Source: an uncultured Candidatus Saccharibacteria bacterium
GTDB taxonomy: Bacteria > Patescibacteriota > Minisyncoccia > Phycocordibacterales > UBA2100
Direction: 5' to 3'
NCBI GenBank assembly: GCA_964434285.1
Contig: CAYSUJ010000001.1
Coordinates: 240,564 to 304,563, forward strand
Length of the DNA stretch: 64,000 nucleotides
The translations under genes were made by a program, and so were the position numbers. The notes beneath the pieces were generated by a model that did not search any database, was not told where the DNA came from, and saw nothing but the letters and a program-made list of their open reading frames with translations. Each line of letters opens with the position of its first letter. Position 1 is the first letter of the stretch. Of this stretch, positions 1 through 37,502 are shown one piece after another.

Positions 1-558
1 GGCGGAGCCTTGATTGCCGGTCTACCCTTGCCCATTTCCGCACTGCAAATCATTTGGGTGAATTTCTTCACTGACAGCTTGCCCGCGCTCTCATTCGCGT
101 TTGAGAAAGAATACGCGAAGCGTGCGCATGGGCGCGGTGCAGAGATACTCACGACGGAAGTGAAGGCGCTCACTTTGGGTATCGGCATCTTGACCTCAAT
201 TCTTCTATTTGGGATGTACTGGGCACTCTTGCATTTCGGCGTTGCACTAGAAGCTGCGCGCAGCACGATCTTCGTGTGCTTCGCTCTCTACGGACTCGTC
301 GTTGCCTACTCGTTCCGTTCGCTACACACCTCTATTTTTTCCATGCCTCTCTTTGAGAACACTGCATTAAATTTCAGTTCTGGTTTTGGCATCGCCCTTA
401 TTGCCTGCACGATGTTTATCCCATTCGTACGAGATATTTTCTCGCTCGCGCCGCTTTCACTCTCACTCTTTGGTCTCATCGTCATTTGGCTTGCACTCAA
501 TATTCTGCTCGTCGAAATGACTAAGTTAGGTTTTCGCGCATACACACGAAGAGCTTAA
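1..558 (+). CDS. Cation-transporting P-type ATPase, C-terminal transmembrane part; 5' end lies outside the window
   Basis: ORF 10..558 reads in frame from the window edge. PISALQIIWVNFFTDSLPALSFAFE and the hydrophobic tail match the C-terminal TM7-10 region of P-type ATPases. Confidence 0.75.
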   Translation, partial: GGALIAGLPLPISALQIIWVNFFTDSLPALSFAFEKEYAKRAHGRGAEILTTEVKALTLGIGILTSILLFGMYWALLHFGVALEAARSTIFVCFALYGLVVAYSFRSLHTSIFSMPLFENTALNFSSGFGIALIACTMFIPFVRDIFSLAPLSLSLFGLIVIWLALNILLVEMTKLGFRAYTRRA

Positions 559-1337
559 CGTATTTCGTGCGTCTGGAGCATTCGTTCTGCAAGAATAGCT
601 CCCCCGATGAGCCCCCCGTTATCGCCCAGTTGAGCCATATTTACAGGCACACCAGTGAACCTCACTGCAATATGGTCGAGCGGTATTGGGTTTCTCCCGA
701 CTATCATCGAGCCGCCGATCACGAATACATCCGGCTTCCAAATAGTCGCGATCTCTGCGAGCCCGTCGGCAAGTATGTCAGCGAGCGCATGTCGCTCTTC
801 GAGTGAGTCAAGATCCCTGGGCTCGATGCCAAACTTTCTTCTGACTGCGGTGCCCGATATCTGTGATTCGAGCCGCGACTTTAGTTCGGGAAAATCTACT
901 TGAAGAAGCGGACTGCTTGCGAGGTTGGACATGTTGATGAAAGCGCCTCCTACACCTGTTGAAACGGTGATGTATGCGATAAGATCAAATGCTTTTCCGC
1001 CACCCTGCTCTGCCTCGCCAAGCCCAACGACGATGGCATCATTGAGGACGCTTACCGGAACGCCAACAATTTTTGTGATCTCTTGTTCTATATGTAGTCC
1101 GCTCCATGCTGGTAGGTTGGTCGCCTGATCCACGACGCCACGCGTCACTCGTCCGGCGAAATCGCCCGCAGCGGCCGCGACACCTTCCGGTGCAAGTTCC
1201 TGTGCAATCCGCCCAAGCACCGCAATCCCCTCATTCGGATCCTGCAACGTTTGCACTTTGCGAATCTCACCGAGCTCCCGCCCCTCGGCGGCGGCCACAC
1301 GCATGTTCGTCCCGCCGATGTCGAATACGATGTTCAT
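555..1337 (-). CDS. ROK-family sugar kinase (glucokinase-like)
   Basis: N-terminal DIGGTNMRVA ATP-binding motif, ROK-like glycine-rich core, 260 aa. Confidence 0.75.
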   Translation of the reverse strand: MNIVFDIGGTNMRVAAAEGRELGEIRKVQTLQDPNEGIAVLGRIAQELAPEGVAAAAGDFAGRVTRGVVDQATNLPAWSGLHIEQEITKIVGVPVSVLNDAIVVGLGEAEQGGGKAFDLIAYITVSTGVGGAFINMSNLASSPLLQVDFPELKSRLESQISGTAVRRKFGIEPRDLDSLEERHALADILADGLAEIATIWKPDVFVIGGSMIVGRNPIPLDHIAVRFTGVPVNMAQLGDNGGLIGGAILAERMLQTHEIR

Positions 1338-1375
1338 GCACCATAGTATCTCACACTTTCACCCCTTTTTGTGTA

Positions 1376-1411
1376 TACGATAACTATGACCGACCGGTTA
1401 TAGTTATCGTA
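1376..1411. promoter_or_regulatory. 36-nt palindromic element, copy 1 (TACGATAACTAT-gaccgaccggtt-ATAGTTATCGTA)
   Basis: Perfect 11-12 bp inverted arms read directly. Lies immediately 3' of the PaaX-like gene stop. Two near-identical copies are at 2051-2090 and 11270-11308. Confidence 0.5.
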
Positions 1412-1414
1412 TTA

Positions 1415-2053
1415 CTACTTCCTGGGCAAAATGACGTCGAGGATTGGATCAAGTGCTGTGGGTGTGCGCAGCGGCGATGTTTCCGCGCTCGCCAACTTAA
1501 ATGTGGAACGAAGATCTCCGTCGCCCTCGATTGAATCGACAATAAGATATTTCATGTCGCGGCCGACACGAAGTTCTGTTTTTAAGAGAGCGATGAACTC
1601 CTCGCACGGGTAGGGATATACCCACACACTATGCTGCATATGAACGAAACCGATTTCGCGCAGATGTTCTCGAATCCGAAAGCGAATGTGTCGGCGTTGT
1701 TCTGGGATATCAAAAATAAGCACTCTCCATTTCCCGTCCCACCGCTTCGGCGGAGGAACCTTTGCAAATACCAATGCGAGTGACCTCAAATATTTCTCAC
1801 CTTTGCTCGTCAGATACAGGTGACCATTCTGTTCCTCAAGATACCCCTGCCTTTTGAGGCGCCTCCGAGCAGCAGCGATGTATTCAGTTTGGCGTGGCTT
1901 GGGAAAGAGGCCAAGCCTTTTCATGCCACCGAGCACATTCGGCGCGACAAGTGCTATAGAAAGCGCACCTGCAACCGCAACGCTACCCAGAAGAATCGCT
2001 CTCAATGATTCATTTCTGCGCCGTTTCTTGCTTTTATCTTCAAGATCACCCAT
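1415..2053 (-). CDS. PaaX-family-like transcriptional regulator with an N-terminal membrane helix
   Basis: C-terminal WDGKWRVLIFDIPEQRRHIRFRIREHLREIGFVHMQHSVWVYP matches the PaaX_C (Cas2-like fold) pattern W-G-W-[LV]-FD-PE...R...GF..L...VW. N-terminal hydrophobic stretch AILLGSVAVAGALSIALVAP. Confidence 0.5.
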   Translation of the reverse strand: MGDLEDKSKKRRRNESLRAILLGSVAVAGALSIALVAPNVLGGMKRLGLFPKPRQTEYIAAARRRLKRQGYLEEQNGHLYLTSKGEKYLRSLALVFAKVPPPKRWDGKWRVLIFDIPEQRRHIRFRIREHLREIGFVHMQHSVWVYPYPCEEFIALLKTELRVGRDMKYLIVDSIEGDGDLRSTFKLASAETSPLRTPTALDPILDVILPRK

Positions 2054-2090
2054 ACGATAAGTATACCCGGCCGGAGAGAGTTATCGTATG
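2051..2090. promoter_or_regulatory. 36-nt palindromic element, copy 2 (CATACGATAAgtatacccggccggagagagTTATCGTATG); overlaps the regulator start codon
   Basis: 10-bp perfect inverted arms. CAT at 2051-2053 is the reverse-complement ATG of the 1415..2053 gene. Confidence 0.5.
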
Positions 2091-2093
2091 TGG

Positions 2094-3089
2094 TCAGGAA
2101 CGGTTGTTTGCAAACAGTATTTTCATCCGCTCCCAAAATTCTGGATGCCCCTTTTCGCGCACGTAATACCACCACTCAATACCCCAGAGATACTGGATGC
2201 CGAGGCGCGAAGCGCGCGCGTACGCGAGAATCTCTTCAACTTTTTCGATATTCATGCGGCGGAGTTGTTCCTCGATCGATACGGTTTCTATCGCAGCGCC
2301 AAACCATGGTTCGAGCGAAAGTTCAGAAAGAATAACGTCGCGCTCGCCAAACATGAGACGCATCAGGTTCGCCTTAATCCGATAGTACGATGCGGGGAGC
2401 GCCGTGCGAAAGGCGCCCGCCGTTTCATTCCAGAAGTAGAGATACATGCTCGTACCAAACACATCCGCCCGTTTGTATGTCTCGAACCACGTGCCGGTGT
2501 TGCCGCCGTCGGTGAGCATAACGGGACGATCATCAAGTGTGCGCACGAGCGCAATTTCTTCATCAAGAAACGATGCGTCAACCTTACCACAATGCTCATC
2601 GGCGAAGACGCGGAGAAAGGGCTCGTTCTCCACTTGCCACATACTGATGGTTTCTTCTTCTTTATAGCGCTCTACGACGGCGGTCAGATACTGCATAATC
2701 TCGATTTTCTGCTCATCCCACGGCATGGATCCAACCCATGCGGGAATATGGCATTCTGGCCAGCGTGGCAAACGGCGACCGATGGAGAGAACGACGTCGG
2801 CATCGTGCTTTTTTGCCTCGGCAATTTGAAAATCGAGCTCGGACCAATCATAGATGTCGCGCTCGCGTTCGATGTGTTCCCAGTATGCAGCGAGCCGCAG
2901 GTGCTTCACGTCGAGCTCCTCGAGTACCGCGCGATACACGTCCCGCCAATCAAGACCTAATTCTTCTGCATACAAGGGGCTGAACGTCGCGCCGTATTGA
3001 ATCCGCGTTGGCGCTTCACGAAATGAGAGTCCAATGAGCACAAAGCCGACGAGAAACATGCCGACGATCACCGCGCGCCACCGACTCAT
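2094..3089 (-). CDS. Glycoside hydrolase (TIM-barrel, GH5/GH42-like) with N-terminal membrane anchor
   Basis: WQVENEP catalytic-acid-type motif, N-terminal TM helix. Start taken at the internal Met (MSRWRAVIVG) to avoid a 46-nt overlap with the upstream gene. Confidence 0.55.
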   Translation of the reverse strand: MSRWRAVIVGMFLVGFVLIGLSFREAPTRIQYGATFSPLYAEELGLDWRDVYRAVLEELDVKHLRLAAYWEHIERERDIYDWSELDFQIAEAKKHDADVVLSIGRRLPRWPECHIPAWVGSMPWDEQKIEIMQYLTAVVERYKEEETISMWQVENEPFLRVFADEHCGKVDASFLDEEIALVRTLDDRPVMLTDGGNTGTWFETYKRADVFGTSMYLYFWNETAGAFRTALPASYYRIKANLMRLMFGERDVILSELSLEPWFGAAIETVSIEEQLRRMNIEKVEEILAYARASRLGIQYLWGIEWWYYVREKGHPEFWERMKILFANNRS

Positions 3090-3982
3090 AGATTGAGATA
3101 GTGCCCAACCGAGAGCAGCGCGAGACCGCACACGATGAGGCCGACGCCCGTCGCGGATATTGTGCCGCCATGCCCATGCGTGCGCGAACCCTCCCGCTTT
3201 GGCATGCGCTTTGCAAACAAAATCGCGAATACAAACAGAAAGACGAACTGCAAACCGGCGAGCGCGTTTACGATCGTCACGGAGCCGAGCGAGATCGCAA
3301 AGGCCGTGAGTATGCTTGCGACACCGCCGATTACTTTGTTACCCATAACGAGCCCCTTTGAGCGAGACGATGAGTGTCTGCCACCGTGCGTGATCGCTGC
3401 GCGCCACGGTGGCACGATGAGAAGCCCGAGCGCTAAGACCACGTTTGCTGCACGCGTCCAAAAAAATCCATCAATGAACGGGACTTCAAAGAATACGAGC
3501 TTAAATGTGAACGCAACCAGCCCGAAAAAGAAGCCCGAAAGGAGCGTAAAGGAAAGCGCGTTCCGAGAGAAATGGAAGTGAGAGATGAGTGCTGTTCCTC
3601 CCGCAAGCAGAAGAACAGGCAGCACGAACGCGGTTGTGATGTCGTCGTCGATCCAGAGCCCGGCAAAAACGAGTGTCGTAATCGCTGAAACGGCTCCCAC
3701 GACCGGCGCTACGTCTGAGGCCCGACCATGGGTAAGCGCCGAATAGAGGCAGAAAATGGCGGCGACAAACGCGGCTGCGTTAATAAAGGAAAGCGCGAGC
3801 GCATGCACACTGGGGATGGAAACGAACGGAACAAATACAACTACAAAACCCGAAAGCAAAGAAACATAAAACGTGTAGACAATTGGGCGCCCGATGTGCG
3901 TTGCACGCAGAACAATGTGGCGATCAATCAAGACGGAGACCGCGTAGAGAAACTGTGCCACTATCGCGAGCGCGAGATACAT
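3086..3982 (-). CDS. Polytopic membrane protein, DMT/EamA-like
   Basis: 298 aa with about 10 predicted TM helices in two halves. Confidence 0.45.
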   Translation of the reverse strand: MYLALAIVAQFLYAVSVLIDRHIVLRATHIGRPIVYTFYVSLLSGFVVVFVPFVSIPSVHALALSFINAAAFVAAIFCLYSALTHGRASDVAPVVGAVSAITTLVFAGLWIDDDITTAFVLPVLLLAGGTALISHFHFSRNALSFTLLSGFFFGLVAFTFKLVFFEVPFIDGFFWTRAANVVLALGLLIVPPWRAAITHGGRHSSSRSKGLVMGNKVIGGVASILTAFAISLGSVTIVNALAGLQFVFLFVFAILFAKRMPKREGSRTHGHGGTISATGVGLIVCGLALLSVGHYLNL

Positions 3983-3986
3983 TCCT

Positions 3987-5159
3987 CTATTCTAGCAACC
4001 CATTGTGCTCGATGATCTGCTTATACACGTAGGCACTGGGACGTATCTTTCGCTCGAGGGTTTGGTAGTCTATTTCAACGAGCCCGAAGCGCTTTTCAAA
4101 GCCCTGCGCCCATTCGTAATTATCGAGGAGCGACCAATACATGTAGCCGCGCACATCTGCACCTCGCTGGAGCGCTGCATGCATCGCACGCGCGAGGCGG
4201 GTGATGTAATCAGCACGAATCGCATCTTTCGCATCTGCCACCCCCGCCTCGCTCACCCACAGAGGCTTTCCGTAGCGCTTAAGCATCATGAGGGCGCCAT
4301 AGAGCCCCTCAGGATACACATCCCAATTCATGTCGGTTTTCTCGTAAATCTTTGTGTCGCCGAATTTTTTATGCTGATAGTAGTTCACTCCGATGGAGTC
4401 GCATTTATTGTAGACCTGCGAAATAACGTGGTGCGTGGAGATCCAGTTCATGAATCGCGCGCGGAGCTTGTTGATCGGGTTCCCGTTCGCATGAAAATAC
4501 ACGGTGTGATGCACGATACCGACCTCGGCACCGAAGGCAGCCGCCTTAATTGCGTCGTACGCCAGATTGTGTGCGCGCGTGAGATTATTCATAACGCGCC
4601 AGTAGCCGCGATAGTTTTTCTTTCGGAATGGCGGCCAATCACCACGTATCCATCCGAGCGATGCAAACACCGTCGGTTCGTTCATCGTGGCAAAATGGCG
4701 GCAATCGTTCCCAAGCTTCTTCGCGACGTACGCACAGTAGCGAGCGAATATTTCTGGTGACTCTGGATTCTCAAAACCACCCTTCTCCACAAACCACTGT
4801 GGGAGCGTGAAGTGCCACATCGTAACAAACGGCTTTAAACGCCGTTCGCGGAGCGCAGCCAAGACCGCAAGATAATGCCCTATCTCCCGCTCATCAAACT
4901 TCCCTTCTTCCGGCTCGATGCGCGCCCACTCTATAGAGATACGGTGACAGTTGTGCCCAAGCTCTTTCGCGATATCAAAGTCGCTTTCGAAGCGATTGTA
5001 GTGATCGCATGCTTTGTTGCACGGCGGCACGCGCCCTGCGCGTGCCGCCTCCGCCCAATCGCAGTTCTCAATACCCCCCTCGACTTGGTAGCTCGCCGTT
5101 GCGGCGCCCCAGTAGAAACCCTCGGGGAATTTTCGTTCCATGCTACCGAAGCCCGACAT
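3987..5159 (-). CDS. GH1 beta-glucosidase
   Basis: FYWGAATASYQVEGG N-terminal signature, TMNEP acid/base motif, overall GH1 length and layout. Confidence 0.9.
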   Translation of the reverse strand: MSGFGSMERKFPEGFYWGAATASYQVEGGIENCDWAEAARAGRVPPCNKACDHYNRFESDFDIAKELGHNCHRISIEWARIEPEEGKFDEREIGHYLAVLAALRERRLKPFVTMWHFTLPQWFVEKGGFENPESPEIFARYCAYVAKKLGNDCRHFATMNEPTVFASLGWIRGDWPPFRKKNYRGYWRVMNNLTRAHNLAYDAIKAAAFGAEVGIVHHTVYFHANGNPINKLRARFMNWISTHHVISQVYNKCDSIGVNYYQHKKFGDTKIYEKTDMNWDVYPEGLYGALMMLKRYGKPLWVSEAGVADAKDAIRADYITRLARAMHAALQRGADVRGYMYWSLLDNYEWAQGFEKRFGLVEIDYQTLERKIRPSAYVYKQIIEHNGLLE

Positions 5160-5416: not shown

Positions 5417-5995
5417 TCATTTTTCTACGATCGGCAGCTCGCCGAAATCGGTTTTCTGTACCTCCGTGTAAAGCGAGTTTTTGAGAAGTGCTGGCTTGCC
5501 GTCGCGCTCGACGACGTAGTAGGCGAAGCCGCGCATTTTCTGCACCATCGTGTAATCGGCGTGTCCGGGCATCGCGATTGGGTTCTTCTCATCGAAGTTT
5601 ACGGGCGAGTCGTCTGCGGTCACGAAATAGGTTTTCCCAATGTTCACCGCAAGGTGCCCATGTCCGGGCGGCATATAAACTGAATCTCCTGGTTTTACGA
5701 CTATCGCACGGAAAAGCTCGACACGTGCAGGATCACTTTCGTCGAAAAGTTTCTGCTGAAGAATGACGCCCTTGCCAAGAAGCACCCAATACGTCTCGTC
5801 GAGCTGCCCGATGTGGTAGTGACCATAGGTCTTAATGTACTCGCCGCCCACGGTGCCCGGCTCCCAGACCGTCACGTTGCGCTGATCGCTCCCGCCGCGA
5901 ATCATGTAGTAGTGGATATTCGGCCCAGGCGCATCCGGTACCATCAAAACTTCGCGCATTTTTTCATGGGTACGTGCAGCGTAGTGTTCGATCAT
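5417..5995 (-). CDS. Cupin-type glucose-6-phosphate isomerase (archaeal-type cPGI)
   Basis: EPGTVGGEYIKTYGHYH...ETYW matches the cPGI signature T-x3-P-x3-G-x-E-x3-T-x-GH-x-H...E-x-Y. PPGHGHLAVN matches PP-x3-H-x3-N. Confidence 0.8.
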   Translation of the reverse strand: MIEHYAARTHEKMREVLMVPDAPGPNIHYYMIRGGSDQRNVTVWEPGTVGGEYIKTYGHYHIGQLDETYWVLLGKGVILQQKLFDESDPARVELFRAIVVKPGDSVYMPPGHGHLAVNIGKTYFVTADDSPVNFDEKNPIAMPGHADYTMVQKMRGFAYYVVERDGKPALLKNSLYTEVQKTDFGELPIVEK

Positions 5996-7448: not shown

Positions 7449-7793
7449 CGTGAATGGGTGGTTGGGAGATTAGTGGTAGTTGCCGGGGCGGCGCCAACGC
7501 CGACACCAGCTTCCCTGTCGCGAACGCGCCGGGTCGGTGATGAACGCAGGAAGAGCCTCCTCCGGCCGGTAGATCTGCCGGACGCCATTCGGGTGCCTCA
7601 TCGGCGCCTGAATGACGATCATCCTCGAATCAACGATACGCCCGCCGCGACGGGTCTCGACCTGAATCTGCATCAGCAGTTCTCCCTTTTTTTCAGGTTG
7701 ACGCCGAAAATATACACTACACTTGCTGTTTTGTCAAGACCGTGGTTTGCAAGCAATTTCCTCATTTCGGGCGAAATGAGGAAATTATGGTTT

Positions 7794-8399
7794 TCAGACC
7801 GCACGATACCGGGCAGCGCGGCGATTGCCGGTGCGACGAAGCTTGCCCGCAAGAACAAGGGTGTTTAGGTATCGCGTGGCAGTTGCCGAAGAAACTCGAA
7901 GTGCGAGTGCAACCTCGCGCGCCTGAATAGTTCCCCGCTCGCGGGCGAGCGCGAGAATATGCTCAAGATTCGCGGCGCGCTTCGCGCGCCGCGCCCTGAG
8001 TCCCTCCGCACTACTTATCTGAGGCACTAGGGCGACAGGTGGAGACGAAGGTGGCGGCGCAGGTGGTGACACGGCTTGAGCACTCGTCTGCGTCTCCTTC
8101 TTCTCTTCAATCTTCTCTTCAGTCCCGGCCGGCGCAATTTCTGGCGATTCAGCGACAGGAACTTCCTGAACTGCCGTCGCAGCGGGAACAGGCGCACTTT
8201 CAATTGGTGACACTGGCGCAGTTTCCTGGGGAGTCTCAACCTCCACAGCTTTTGCATCCGGTGTCGTTTCCGCGATAACCTCTTCCGGCACACTCACCTC
8301 AACCGGCGCAACCACACTCTCTTCTTTCGCCACTTCTTCCACGCGCATGACTTCCGGCACTGACTCACTCTCTGCAACTGTGTCACCACTCATACACAC
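7794..8399 (-). CDS. Hypothetical DNA-binding protein: acidic Pro/Glu/Val-rich N-terminus, C-terminal winged-HTH
   Basis: C-terminal REVALALRVSSATATRYLNTLVLAGKLRRTG is HTH-like. The N-terminal 130 aa are low complexity. Confidence 0.45.
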   Translation of the reverse strand: MCMSGDTVAESESVPEVMRVEEVAKEESVVAPVEVSVPEEVIAETTPDAKAVEVETPQETAPVSPIESAPVPAATAVQEVPVAESPEIAPAGTEEKIEEKKETQTSAQAVSPPAPPPSSPPVALVPQISSAEGLRARRAKRAANLEHILALARERGTIQAREVALALRVSSATATRYLNTLVLAGKLRRTGNRRAARYRAV

Positions 8400-9261: not shown

Positions 9262-9294
9262 CGGTGCGGCAAGCTCCATTGGAGCTTGCCGCAC
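9262..9294 (+). terminator. Perfect 15-bp hairpin GGTGCGGCAAGCTCC-att-GGAGCTTGCCGCACC 3' of the 8511..9248 gene
   Basis: Read directly. No U-tract follows. Confidence 0.4.
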
Positions 9295-9355
9295 CGCCTT
9301 GTCCCCCATGAGCCCCACACATACAATAGATAAAGGCACTCCTCGTAAGAGGAGC

Positions 9356-11269: not shown

Positions 11270-11308
11270 ATACGATAACTATACCCGACCGGATAGAGTT
11301 ATCGTATG
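11270..11308. promoter_or_regulatory. 36-nt palindromic element, copy 3 (ATACGATAACTatacccgaccggatagAGTTATCGTAT)
   Basis: 11-bp perfect arms. Core CCCGACCGG is shared with copies 1 and 2. A TGCTAGAAT -10 box follows at 11345-11353. Confidence 0.5.
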
Positions 11309-11361
11309 CGCAAAGACGGCTGCATTGGGGGTGGCACAACTCACCGTGCTAGAATCGCGGC

Positions 11362-12084
11362 ATGCCAAAGCATTTCTTTTTTGACCTCGACAACACGCTC
11401 ACCCTAAGCCGTGCGGGAATGGCACCGCGCCATGTACCAATGTTCCAAGAACTGTGCGCACGACATGACGTGGTAGTCGTCACGGGCGGCGCCGAAGAAC
11501 AAATACAAAAGCAGATCCCCTTTCCAAGCGCTGGCAATTTCACAATGTTGAGCCAGCAAGGTAATTACGCCGTGGCGAAAGACGGCACGCTGTTGTGGTA
11601 TGAGACGGTCACTCTTGAACAAGAAGCCGCTGTTCGCGCGTTTGCCGATCTTCTTACCGCAGAACTTGCCCTTCAGGTATCTGACTCGAACGATTTGTTC
11701 GAGAATCGTGGCAGCCAACTCGCATACAGCACGCTCGGTTTCCACGCGAAAAATGAGCTCAAGTACGCGTACGATCCTGATCAATCCAAGCGACGTGCAC
11801 TTCTCGCCGCGCATCCAGAAGAGATGGCACACCTGCATGCTGCAGGTATCGAGGCAATGCCGGCGGGCTCAACAACCATCGATTTCATTCTCAAGGGCAA
11901 GAATAAAGGTCACAACATCAGAAAGCTTATCGAAAATAATAACTGGCAGAAAGAAGAATGCCTCTACATCGGCGACGCCCTCTTCCCCGGCGGGAACGAC
12001 GAAACGGTGATCGGCGTCATCCCCACTCACTCAGTCAAGAACCCCGAGGAAACATTTGCATATCTCGCATCGCTCCTGGGCTAA
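11362..12084 (+). CDS. HAD-superfamily hydrolase, subfamily IIB
   Basis: FFDLDNTLT (DxDxT) motif I. C-terminal YIGDALFPGGNDETV motif IV. Confidence 0.8.
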   Translation: MPKHFFFDLDNTLTLSRAGMAPRHVPMFQELCARHDVVVVTGGAEEQIQKQIPFPSAGNFTMLSQQGNYAVAKDGTLLWYETVTLEQEAAVRAFADLLTAELALQVSDSNDLFENRGSQLAYSTLGFHAKNELKYAYDPDQSKRRALLAAHPEEMAHLHAAGIEAMPAGSTTIDFILKGKNKGHNIRKLIENNNWQKEECLYIGDALFPGGNDETVIGVIPTHSVKNPEETFAYLASLLG

Positions 12085-19799: not shown

Positions 19800-20868
19800 A
19801 TACCAAAACAATCCGTTTTTCCGGACTGAAACACGCATCGTTGCTTTTCACGTCCTCTTTGCTGCGTTTATTGTTTCCGCACTTGTTGCCTCATACATCA
19901 ACACCTCGTATTTCATCGGCACAACGCCCACGATGAGTACCACAACCGACCCTAATGCGGTTGTCACGACGCTCATCGCGGCAAGTTTTGAACAACTCGA
20001 GTATCGCCGCATTCGCAATCTGACGCTTGTCATTTCCGCAATCGTCCTCGCAACACTCATCGCGAGCTACGTCCTCGCGCAAATATCACTCAAACCCGCC
20101 CGCGAGGCGCTCGCGCAACAAAAAATCTTTGTCAGCAATATTGCGCACGAACTCCGAACCCCGCTCTCTACCATACAAACCAACACCGAGGTGGCACTGT
20201 TCGACACCTCGCTCAATCCTGCGCTGCGCGAAACGCTCGAAAACAACGTTCGCGATCTCAAACGCATCTCGGAAATCATCAACAATTTGCTTTCACTCGA
20301 CGTCTCACTTCAGCGAGAACGCATTCCCTTTGGAAAGATCGATCTCGCGCTCATCGTGCACACCGCACTCGAAAGGCTTAACTCCCTCTCGGTCACCAAA
20401 CAAGTCCGCCTCAACGCCCCCGCGCGCGGCAATTTCATCGTGTGGGGTAACGGAAACGCACTTGAGCAAATCGTGACGAACATTCTCAAAAATGCACTCA
20501 CGCACACCCCGTCCGGCGGGCGCGTCACTATCCGGCTCGGGCGCGCGGAGCCCGCCATGGTCGAGCTCTGCATTGAGGACACCGGCGCTGGCATCGCGCC
20601 AGCCGATCTTGCGCACATATTCGAACCGTTTTTTCGTTCAGATCGTTCGCGCAGCCGCGCACGCGGTGAAGCGGGCCTCGGTCTCACGATTGTCCACGAA
20701 CTCGTCAAATTGCACCGCGGCTCGATCCGTGTGCACAGTGTCCTCAAGCAAGGAACAACCGTGCTGGTGCGCATACCAACAGGGGCACCACAGAGTGATC
20801 ACACATATCCCACGTCACCGCTCTCAAACGAAATTACGGTTGATTATTCCGAAGAGCGTGGCGTATAA
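19708..20868 (+). CDS. Sensor histidine kinase (HisKA + HATPase_c)
   Basis: H-box NIAHELRTPLS, N-box and G-boxes (DTGAGI, GLGLTIV). Overlaps the RR stop in another frame. Confidence 0.85.
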   Translation: MSKTFAENSMTKNIVNFWKRFGALGTDFASKYQNNPFFRTETRIVAFHVLFAAFIVSALVASYINTSYFIGTTPTMSTTTDPNAVVTTLIAASFEQLEYRRIRNLTLVISAIVLATLIASYVLAQISLKPAREALAQQKIFVSNIAHELRTPLSTIQTNTEVALFDTSLNPALRETLENNVRDLKRISEIINNLLSLDVSLQRERIPFGKIDLALIVHTALERLNSLSVTKQVRLNAPARGNFIVWGNGNALEQIVTNILKNALTHTPSGGRVTIRLGRAEPAMVELCIEDTGAGIAPADLAHIFEPFFRSDRSRSRARGEAGLGLTIVHELVKLHRGSIRVHSVLKQGTTVLVRIPTGAPQSDHTYPTSPLSNEITVDYSEERGV

Positions 20869-36720: not shown

Positions 36721-36776
36721 CCCAAGGCACCCATCCCCAAGGTCCCCAAGGCGACGCCTTGTTCCAAACAAGCCAA

Positions 36777-37448
36777 TCAGAGAGCCATATTTTTATAGTA
36801 CTCTGCAGCATCTTCCAGGACCTCTGCCAGTTCCACATTTGTTTCGAACAAAGTGCGTGTTTCCGGATCAAGTACTAAGCTTTCAGCCCTCGGTGCACCA
36901 AAATAGTATCCGGCGCTGCTATATTCATAATTCAAAAGACGCTTCTTGAGTTGTGCAATATCTGCCCTGAGAATCCCCCGCTTCCAATGTGGTTCGAACA
37001 ATTCTGCAGGATTAAGATGGAGATAATTCGGTATGTGCATGAAGTGCGCTTCACTCGTGATTCTTCGTGCACGAAATGGTTTGAGAAATAGATTTCCCGT
37101 TCGTTCGTTGCGTTTATTGAAATACATCGTATACGCAGTACCAACTTTTTGCATATAAGAAGAAATGCCTCCTTCTACTATCTCCTGCATCACTATATGA
37201 AAATGATTTGGCATCAGACAATACGCAGCAATAGATACGAGAGGATCGCCGCGTATATGTCTGAAGATCTCATCGTGCGAAAGGAAGTTAACGTCATTTT
37301 GATGTATTGCTTTCGTACTGTTACTCAGATACAAAGCCTGAAGAAAACGCCGATAGTCATGAGGCGAACAGAAAACACGCCTCTTGTCGACGCCACGATT
37401 GTAACAATGATACCATTCACCGACTCCAAAGGACTCTCGCAACGCCAT
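36777..37448 (-). mobile_element. Y1 (HUH) transposase of the IS200/IS605 TnpA / RAYT family
   Basis: YHCYNRGVDKRRVF and AYCLMPNHFHIVMQ match the Transposase_17 His-hydrophobic-His and catalytic Tyr-region signatures. Flanked by palindromes sharing CAAGGCGACGCCTTGTTC. Confidence 0.8.
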
Positions 37449-37461
37449 TGCCTCTACTATA

Positions 37462-37502
37462 CCACCCCACAGAACAAGGCGACGCCTTGTTCTGTGGGGT
37501 GG
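37462..37502. repeat. Perfect 20-bp hairpin CCACCCCACAGAACAAGGCG-a-CGCCTTGTTCTGTGGGGTGG, 13 nt upstream of the RAYT start
   Basis: Read directly. The same CAAGGCGACGCCTTGTTC core is at 36747-36764, after three CCCAAGG tandem repeats (36721-36752). Confidence 0.6.

Follow-up and report, generated by a model that had tools for sequence, protein, structure and literature searches.

The closest described relative of the protein considered here is PaaX of Escherichia coli, which recognises a long-spaced palindrome of 39 bp (TGATTC-N27-GAATCA) and acts as a steric repressor of its own promoter, Px (PMC9493321). Another kind of protein associated with palindromes is the RAYT, the transposase associated with repetitive extragenic palindromes (REPs). 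Its hallmarks are two flanking REPs that are always present, often right after the stop codon, co-evolution of protein and repeat, and palindromy that is kept by complementary changes (PMC2817692); the definition of a REP includes a head, GTAG or CGTC, on one side of the palindrome (PMC3733652, PMC2817692). Here, we describe a palindromic element of 38-40 nt (the dyad) in a 64-kb stretch of DNA from an uncultured Candidatus Saccharibacteria bacterium, a member of the Candidate Phyla Radiation (CPR). This whole stretch is called the window in the following; its domain content (DUF5667 and DUF5666) and the relatives that we found place the organism in the Patescibacteria (CPR). Two copies of the dyad frame a gene for a PaaX-like protein (1415..2053, minus strand) and a third copy stands alone. 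Every relative of the gene that we examined is framed by its own version of the palindrome, and thus the palindrome is most likely the binding site of the protein itself and a switch for its self-repression. With slightly better than even confidence, we propose that the framed protein has the dyad as its cognate site, that the copy at the start codon would function as a promoter-operator for autorepression and that the other copies would be additional sites where transcription units meet.

The window has exactly three matches to the pattern TACGATAA-N20-TTATCGTA (1376-1411, 2053-2088 and 11271-11306), and all three copies extend to ATACGATAA-N20-TTATCGTAT (38 nt), their full extents being 1375-1412, 2051-2090 and 11270-11307. 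There were no matches to the shorter pattern in 100 dinucleotide-preserving shuffles of the window, and when up to three mismatches per arm were allowed, no further copy was found anywhere in the 64 kb, which rules out chance or a half-site artefact. Copy 1, the stop-side dyad (1375..1412), lies 2-3 nt past the stop codon of the PaaX-like gene (1417-1415) and 37 nt upstream of the ATG of a ROK-family kinase gene. Copy 2, the start-side dyad (2051..2090, CATACGATAAG...AGTTATCGTATG), is the longest of the three, a 40-nt dyad CATACG...CGTATG, and its last three minus-strand letters form the ATG with which the PaaX-like gene begins (2053-2051); it is also located 4 nt beyond the stop codon of the upstream glycoside hydrolase (GH) gene. 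Copy 3 (11270..11307) is solitary and found 38 nt past the stop codon of a DUF5667 gene and 54 nt upstream of the ATG of a HAD/PMM-type gene. The original prediction, made from the letters alone, had placed two copies at the two ends of the PaaX-like gene, the first just past the stop codon and the second beginning on the ATG, and a third near 11270, and all of its coordinates and spacings were correct. It had further described perfect inverted repeats around a conserved centre. The centre, CCGRCCGG, is common to all three copies. The arms, 18-20 nt long, are 80-94% self-complementary, and copy 2 is the least symmetrical (80%), with TATACT, a -10 hexamer, as one inner arm and GAGAGT as the other.

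Framing by the dyad is a trait of the whole family. The contigs encoding homologues were looked up, and public genomes and metagenomes were scanned for the dyad, which resulted in 13 independent loci (the window, W, and the relatives L049, L050, L053, L059, L074, L105, L026, L060, a paralogue in L012, L100, L102 and L104). All 13 genes have a dyad at either end: one ends on or abuts the ATG, and the other is on the stop codon or at most 33 nt from it. The orthologues in sugar clusters are 80% (L049), 61% (L050), 59% (L053) and 55% (L105) identical to the window protein and include also L059 and L074. Their start-side dyad ends exactly at the ATG (...TTATCGT-ATG-GGn, encoding MGxLEE...) and the second dyad overlaps the stop codon or directly follows it; the arms of the framing dyads are degenerate in L105. 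The layout of copy 2 is repeated in L049, L050, L053, L059, L074, L026 and L060. The last two are from Zambryskiibacteria, where a 189-aa relative stands between PGK and a convergent HIT gene and is framed with the same arms as in the window.

The sequence of the arms, for its part, follows the paralogue. Five to six different arm sequences were seen, each tied to its own paralogue: type 1 (ATACGATAAC / GTTATCGTAT) in the window and its closer relatives, type 2 (ATGTACTTA...TAAGTACAT) in L100, where the gene is located between a ribosomal-protein/SecY/Map cluster and PurD, GTACCGATT...AATCGGTAC and GTACCAATC...GATTGGTAC in L102, TACATTAA...TTAATGTA in L104, and type 4 (ATACGTTA...TAACGTAT) in L012 (1353-1925), a second paralogue in the same Zambryskiibacteria metagenome-assembled genome (MAG) as L026. 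In every arm type, C-G pairs close a central core of 4 nt. When 39 copies were aligned, columns 18 and 23 were C:G in 38 of the sequences, and all 39 dyads had the ends (C)ATACG...CGTAT(G).

Judging from the position and composition of its inner arm, copy 2 is likely to hold the leaderless promoter of the PaaX-like gene. The copy spans about -38 to +2, and the inner arm carries the hexamer TATACT (2060..2065, minus strand; -12..-7 from the A of the ATG), followed by 6 nt and then the ATG. A hexamer of the form TANNNT is found at -12..-7 in all eight type-1 start-side copies (as TATACT, TATAGT, TATAAT or TAAAGT), compared to 11 of the 62 sides of other copies. It is probable that copy 2 is the least symmetrical of the three because one of its inner arms serves as the -10 hexamer. 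The same leaderless layout, with TANNNT (often with TGn before it) 5-8 nt ahead of the start codon, was seen in 16 of the 59 ORF-called genes of the window versus 3% of random positions, and a Shine-Dalgarno-like motif in only six of the 59. Gene starts in the window thus look leaderless for the most part. A canonical sigma-70 promoter with -35 and -10 elements was not found at the three window copies. The extended -10-like box TGAGATACTAT (1343..1353, minus strand), 5-7 nt before the ATG of the ROK gene, looks like a separate leaderless promoter of that gene. Similarly, the extended -10 box TGCTAGAAT (11347..11355, plus strand), downstream of copy 3 and 6 nt before the ATG of the HAD gene, looks like the leaderless promoter of the latter.

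The framed gene encodes a protein of 212 aa with a winged helix and a Cas2-like (PaaX_M) domain and without PaaX_C, as indicated by Pfam, AlphaFold2 and Foldseek. PaaX_M (PF20803) matches the product with an E value of 7.8e-21 (74 bits versus a cutoff of 24), while the Pfam model of the PaaX N-terminus gave no match to it at E <= 0.01 and PaaX_C had no Pfam match in it. The AlphaFold2 model (predicted local distance difference test, pLDDT, 75) has a helix-helix-wing module (H38-46, H55-68, wing E72-81) followed by a ferredoxin-like domain. In Foldseek against the PDB, the top match was E. coli PaaX (8a39; E 5e-4, 139 columns), next Rv0674 (3kfw) and then Cas2 proteins. Searched against the PDB as a single sequence, the protein had no match, and PaaX and Rv0674 were reached in sequence only by the profile of the family (PaaX E 0.007-0.01), in an alignment that spans the recognition helix and the wing. 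The assignment to PaaX-like winged-helix proteins in the original prediction is thus upheld by both fold and profile. As the CPR proteins lack PaaX_C and do not stand beside paa genes, we call them PaaX-like rather than PaaX. The CPR PaaX_M family has an invariant Asp (D115 in the window protein, FDIPE) in the column of the catalytic Asp of Cas2 (YDITDD in SSO1404), a column that has no Asp in E. coli PaaX (LLSEGLD) or Rv0674 (LIVTSIG). Short paralogues (187-189 aa) stop right after the Cas2-like domain, and the window protein merely continues for about 25 aa with little conservation. The homologues at E <= 1e-10 number more than 450, and exact copies of the window protein were limited to two Logan assemblies and a single contig at NCBI. 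A hydrophobic stretch (ILLGSVAVAGALSIALVAPNVLGG) at residues ~17-42 is modelled in a long helix at low confidence (pLDDT 57-73) and might belong to the winged helix (as helix 1/2) or anchor the protein in a membrane.

From the architecture, its conservation, the co-variation of arms and paralogues, the promoter motif and the fold, we infer binding, repression and any boundary function of the dyad as follows. A minimal PaaX-type protein specific to CPR bacteria, consisting of a winged helix and a Cas2-like dimerisation domain, would span the dyad as a dimer, as E. coli PaaX does on its 39-bp site, with each winged helix reading one 10-bp outer arm. The outer arms are about 18 bp apart, with the centre between them closed by the C-G pairs. 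Since copy 2 contains the putative leaderless promoter of the gene, protein bound to it would occlude RNA polymerase, resulting in negative autoregulation. Copies 1 and 3 would be further sites of the same protein between transcription units, most likely as boundary or roadblock elements (possibly aided by a hairpin), or they might tune the leaderless promoter that follows; they do not seem to resemble the operators of a sugar regulon. Autoregulation by a dimer had been suggested in the original prediction. It gains indirect support from the location of copy 2 over the gene's own promoter, from the same layout in eight of eight loci with the same arms, from arms that track the paralogue and from the precedent of PaaX, but it leaves the stop-side and solitary copies unexplained.

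Compared to E. coli PaaX and its operators (Px, Pa, Pz and pac), the CPR protein has a homologous N-terminal winged helix and Cas2-like middle domain, and in both systems the palindrome is long-spaced (about 39 bp in total) and covers the protein's own promoter, both the site and the promoter being predicted ones in the CPR. In contrast to PaaX, the CPR protein is without PaaX_C and hence without an evident module for sensing phenylacetyl-CoA. No paa (phenylacetate) genes were seen beside family members, whose neighbours are instead GH1/GH/EamA/ROK/GPI, the ribosomal cluster and PurD, or PGK and HIT. The arms are 10 bp in the CPR and 6 bp in PaaX, the centre of the CPR dyad is conserved as well, and the CPR promoter is leaderless with the ATG as part of the dyad. 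Further differences are the second dyad on the stop codon in every member, the many solitary copies, some of them between convergent genes, and the Cas2 catalytic-Asp column kept in the CPR family.

Solitary copies are found in the MAG CAYJVW01 (labelled Saccharibacteria), which has at least 16 copies, 14 of them solitary and exact and two, slightly degenerate, around its orthologue of the gene. In the 14 solitary copies, the 9+9-nt arms are perfect and the inner sequences vary, a pattern that agrees better with selected arms than with recent copying; no degenerate solitary copies were found in the ~112 kb fetched around the CAYJVW01 copies. The dyad also occurs in MAGs of Kaiserbacteria, Zambryskiibacteria and other Patescibacteria. 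The scan of species-representative genomes found no contig with the three-copy layout of the window, and the metagenome scan for the dyad added only about ten copies. The contexts of the solitary copies were checked with Pfam and tRNA scans, and the 18 copies that could be classified lie between tandem (13), convergent (four) or divergent (one) genes, a distribution that does not differ significantly from random intergenic placement (chi-square p ~0.1). In the tandem contexts, the dyad is between the upstream stop codon (2-56 nt away) and the leaderless promoter of the next gene. A gene 3' end faces the dyad in 17 of the 18 cases, and it is usually nearer than the start of the next gene. 

Many of the matches of the pattern scan outside the CPR come from an unrelated element that shares the 9-nt base of the stem. 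It is a hairpin, ATACGATAAATAyrGCAnnnnTGCyrTATTTATCGTAT, flanked by A/T runs and shared by Clostridia/Lachnospiraceae contigs (L008, L018, L022, L031, L043, L048, L057, L058, L063, L078, L080 and L093), and it was set aside.

Several of our observations weigh against the dyad being simply the operator of the framed protein. Four solitary copies are located between convergent genes (in L038 between those of a PD-(D/E)XK nuclease and DsbA, in L044 between those of an epimerase and a methyltransferase, and also in L025 and L034), where there is no promoter to regulate. This is incompatible with every copy being a promoter operator: the orientation of the solitary copies refutes an operator-only model, and it does not prove a function at 3' ends. 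The stop-side copy is kept even where the next gene is convergent (L026 and L060), and the neighbours of the solitary copies are functionally unrelated (RF2, MsrB, adenylosuccinate lyase, SHMT, OTCase, PIF1, tRNA-Cys and 16S rRNA). The orthologous junction of L049 lacks copy 3; comparison with this empty site gave no readable insertion footprint, the junction being too diverged. The group of the window and the group of L026 and L060 share type-1 arms but differ in the putative recognition helix. Moreover, the left and right inner arms co-vary, with 70 doubly changed cells versus 30±5 in shuffles (0 of 500 shuffles reached 70), and perfect palindromes with idiosyncratic inner stems make up 8 of the 23 solitary copies versus 2.7% for swapped partners, a figure that may be inflated by the choice of metagenome copies (four of the 18 taxon-labelled genome matches are perfect). 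Neither the excess of perfect palindromes nor the covariation of inner arms is predicted by two half-sites that are read independently. However, covariation was only marginal within one MAG (p ~0.03), and therefore the covariation across the alignment is largely a genome- or paralogue-specific consensus of the inner arms. The pattern reads as selection mainly on the arms as duplex DNA, plus an unexplained tendency to full palindromy, for which a requirement for cruciforms, quasi-palindrome correction or the birth of sites by fold-back duplication are possible sources.

The main rival to a regulator with its own site is a partnership similar to that of REPs and RAYTs, which we regard as unlikely. 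The dyads would then be dispersed by, or maintained together with, the Cas2-like protein that they flank, the gene and its two repeats forming a 'master' unit and the solitary copies being its non-autonomous progeny or domesticated descendants. The layout matches the published hallmarks of RAYTs (PMC2817692): the gene is framed by two palindromic repeats without exception among our loci, the repeat is specific to the paralogue and co-varies with the protein, the gene is single-copy and vertically inherited, and palindromy is kept by complementary changes. Solitary copies are scattered between genes whatever the function or orientation of the neighbours, and the excess of perfect palindromes, the missing copy 3 in L049 and the invariant Asp in the Cas2 catalytic column, which has no counterpart in PaaX and Rv0674, are in line with such a partnership. 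On the other hand, the flanked protein is winged-helix/Cas2-like, without a match to Y1_Tnp, and is not a Y1 HUH transposase. We know of no nuclease or transposase activity in PaaX_M domains. The copies seem to be few (at least 16 in CAYJVW01 and three in the 64 kb of the window), tens against the hundreds of REPs, of which there are usually more than 100 per genome. The dyad is a full symmetric site of 38-40 bp without a GTAG or CGTC head, whereas a REP is asymmetric, and the start-side dyad would double as a promoter. The gene is syntenic as well as vertically inherited, no target-site duplications were seen at the copies, and solitary arms that are perfect around differing inner sequences look like selection on binding and not like recent copying. 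The original prediction had offered as an alternative that the element travels with the regulator gene. This is true in the sense of strict co-inheritance, but active mobility is unsupported because synteny is stable and target-site duplications were not seen.

Still somewhat less likely, in our view, is an element that works at the level of RNA. On transcription, the dyad would form a hairpin (stem up to 18 bp) that terminates or pauses transcription, protects 3' ends or is a site for RNase III, and the hairpin of copy 2 would bury the AUG of read-through transcripts such that only the leaderless mRNA is translated, the protein being irrelevant or secondary. The predicted RNA hairpins are stable (-15 to -25 kcal/mol, z-scores -3.2 to -7.7), the stem is 86% paired in the 39-copy alignment and its pairs co-vary. 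As in intrinsic terminators and intergenic hairpins, a stable stem-loop stands a few nt after stop codons, also between convergent genes, and the prevalence of 3' gene ends facing the solitary copies would agree with such a role. The window has other hairpins of this kind without a T-run, namely unique perfect palindromes at 9262-9296 (17+1+17 nt) and 7755-7786 (15+2+15 nt), 14 and 8 nt after stop codons. The former is between a DUF5666 gene and a sigma-factor gene and the latter follows a winged helix-turn-helix gene (7794-8399), and long hairpins after stop codons seem to be common in the window genome. However, the dyad has no T-run, the terminator scan gave no call at the three window copies, which are followed by ACACAAAAAGG, GGGTGATC or GCGCAAAG, and the base of the stem is AT-rich, although canonical T-run terminators do occur in the same genome. 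Selection on the RNA would favour G.U pairs on the sense strand, but these were not in excess (15 versus 17 A.C mismatches) and 42 mismatches were of the transversion type, and the covariation is, as said, weak within one genome. In contrast to terminators, the sequence of the dyad is conserved across genomes and specific to the paralogue, and a hairpin alone cannot explain 10-bp arms that are conserved across CPR families and yet switch with the paralogue.

The PaaX-like gene of the window lies in a conserved cluster for the use of sugars. On the minus strand, the order is GPI-GH1-EamA-like transporter-GH-PaaX-like-ROK, with glucose-6-phosphate isomerase (GPI) at 5417-5995, GH1 at 3987-5159 and a glycoside hydrolase with a GH42/GH10-like TIM barrel (2094..3131) as the upstream neighbour of the PaaX-like gene. 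The ROK-family sugar kinase gene (555..1337, minus strand) is the downstream neighbour, in synteny that is kept in L049, L053 and L105, and the HAD (Hydrolase_3/PMM-like) gene downstream of copy 3 is on the plus strand (11362..12084). The least probable of the explanations we weighed is that the protein represses this beta-glucoside/sugar cluster (GPI-GH1-EamA-GH-ROK and the HAD phosphatase) with the three dyads as operators, since the conserved cluster around the gene (in W, L049, L050, L053 and L105), the end of copy 1 ~24 nt upstream of the ROK -10 box and a HAD/PMM-type gene 54-56 nt downstream of a dyad in both the window and L032 (VTT-HAD/PMM, 56 nt in L032) are set against type-1-arm genes in another context in Zambryskiibacteria (PGK and convergent HIT), paralogues at the end of the ribosomal-protein/SecY/Map cluster, mostly unrelated housekeeping neighbours of the solitary copies, including rRNA and tRNA genes, the lack of a dyad ahead of the first sugar-cluster genes in the window and the copies between convergent genes. 

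CPR bacteria, or Patescibacteria, make up a large share of bacterial diversity, and the control of transcription in them is almost unstudied. PaaX_M-only proteins, often mis-annotated as Cas2, are among the most widespread putative regulators of the CPR, and our results provide a directly testable assignment of such a protein to its site as well as a concrete model of a leaderless promoter-operator. Controls of specificity are built in, since the arms differ between paralogues, in one case between two from the same genome. That PaaX has long-spaced palindromic operators and represses itself is already known. In the searchable literature, however, we found no description of a gene framed by two cognate dyads across a whole family, nor of an ATG within the dyad of a leaderless promoter, paralogue-specific arms or dispersed boundary copies. 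The two-site framing and the convergent copies may be signs of a boundary or roadblock role or of a REP/RAYT-like partnership built on another fold, and either a boundary function or a non-HUH repeat partnership would, if true, be new biology. Tentatively, and with low confidence, the loci can be seen as a 'self-framed' CPR system in which each winged-helix/Cas2-like protein would recognise a private 38-40-bp palindrome, set at both ends of its own gene and scattered over gene borders, and would act as a sequence-specific roadblock or insulator or as part of a non-HUH analogue of REP/RAYT. As an insulator, the protein might separate transcription units from one another where genomes are compact and leaderless genes abundant; in a REP/RAYT analogue, the Cas2-like domain with its retained catalytic-Asp column might maintain or spread the repeats.

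Known repeat classes did not account for the dyad. A CRISPR array has at least three regular repeats with spacers of 25-50 bp, whereas copies 1 and 2 are separated by a protein-coding gene of 639 bp and copy 3 is 9 kb off. Integron attC and Xer/dif sites were rejected on spacing and sequence, the comparison with attC and dif being by eye only. A miniature inverted-repeat transposable element or an insertion sequence was rejected as well, as the copies are without flanking direct repeats and the position of the gene is syntenic across genomes at 55-80% protein identity. No known RNA families or tRNA were found in the window.

The window does include a genuine hairpin-flanked unit of the RAYT/IS200 type, unrelated in sequence to the PaaX-like dyad. 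A Y1_Tnp (IS200-like) gene is located at 36777-37448 on the minus strand (Pfam E 8e-6). Its ATG is preceded, at a distance of 14 nt, by a perfect 41-nt palindrome (37462-37502; CCACCCCACAGAACAAGGCG-A-reverse complement) that adjoins a TATAGT box, and a partial copy of the palindrome centre (AAGGCGACGCCTTGTTC) is found just past its stop codon (~36746-36766). In L053, a bAvd gene adjoins an RVT_1 reverse transcriptase (19803-20648), ~9 kb away from where the PaaX-like gene lies in the same MAG, and this looks like a diversity-generating retroelement.

Some solitary copies have contexts of their own. In L012 (5845-5931, 6264-6660), two dyads 11 nt apart, one with the arm ATACGATAAC and the other with ATACATTATAA, are located ~330 nt upstream of 16S rRNA, and a promoter-like site TTGACG-N16-TATACT comes after the pair. 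A tRNA-Cys adjoins a type-1 dyad in two genomes (L006:2161-2323 and L070:2192-2340), 50 nt downstream of it in one and 38 nt upstream in the other. At the centre of the perfect dyad of L069 (6027-6064) is CGACTCACTATAG, which matches the T7 phi10 promoter core exactly, probably by coincidence.

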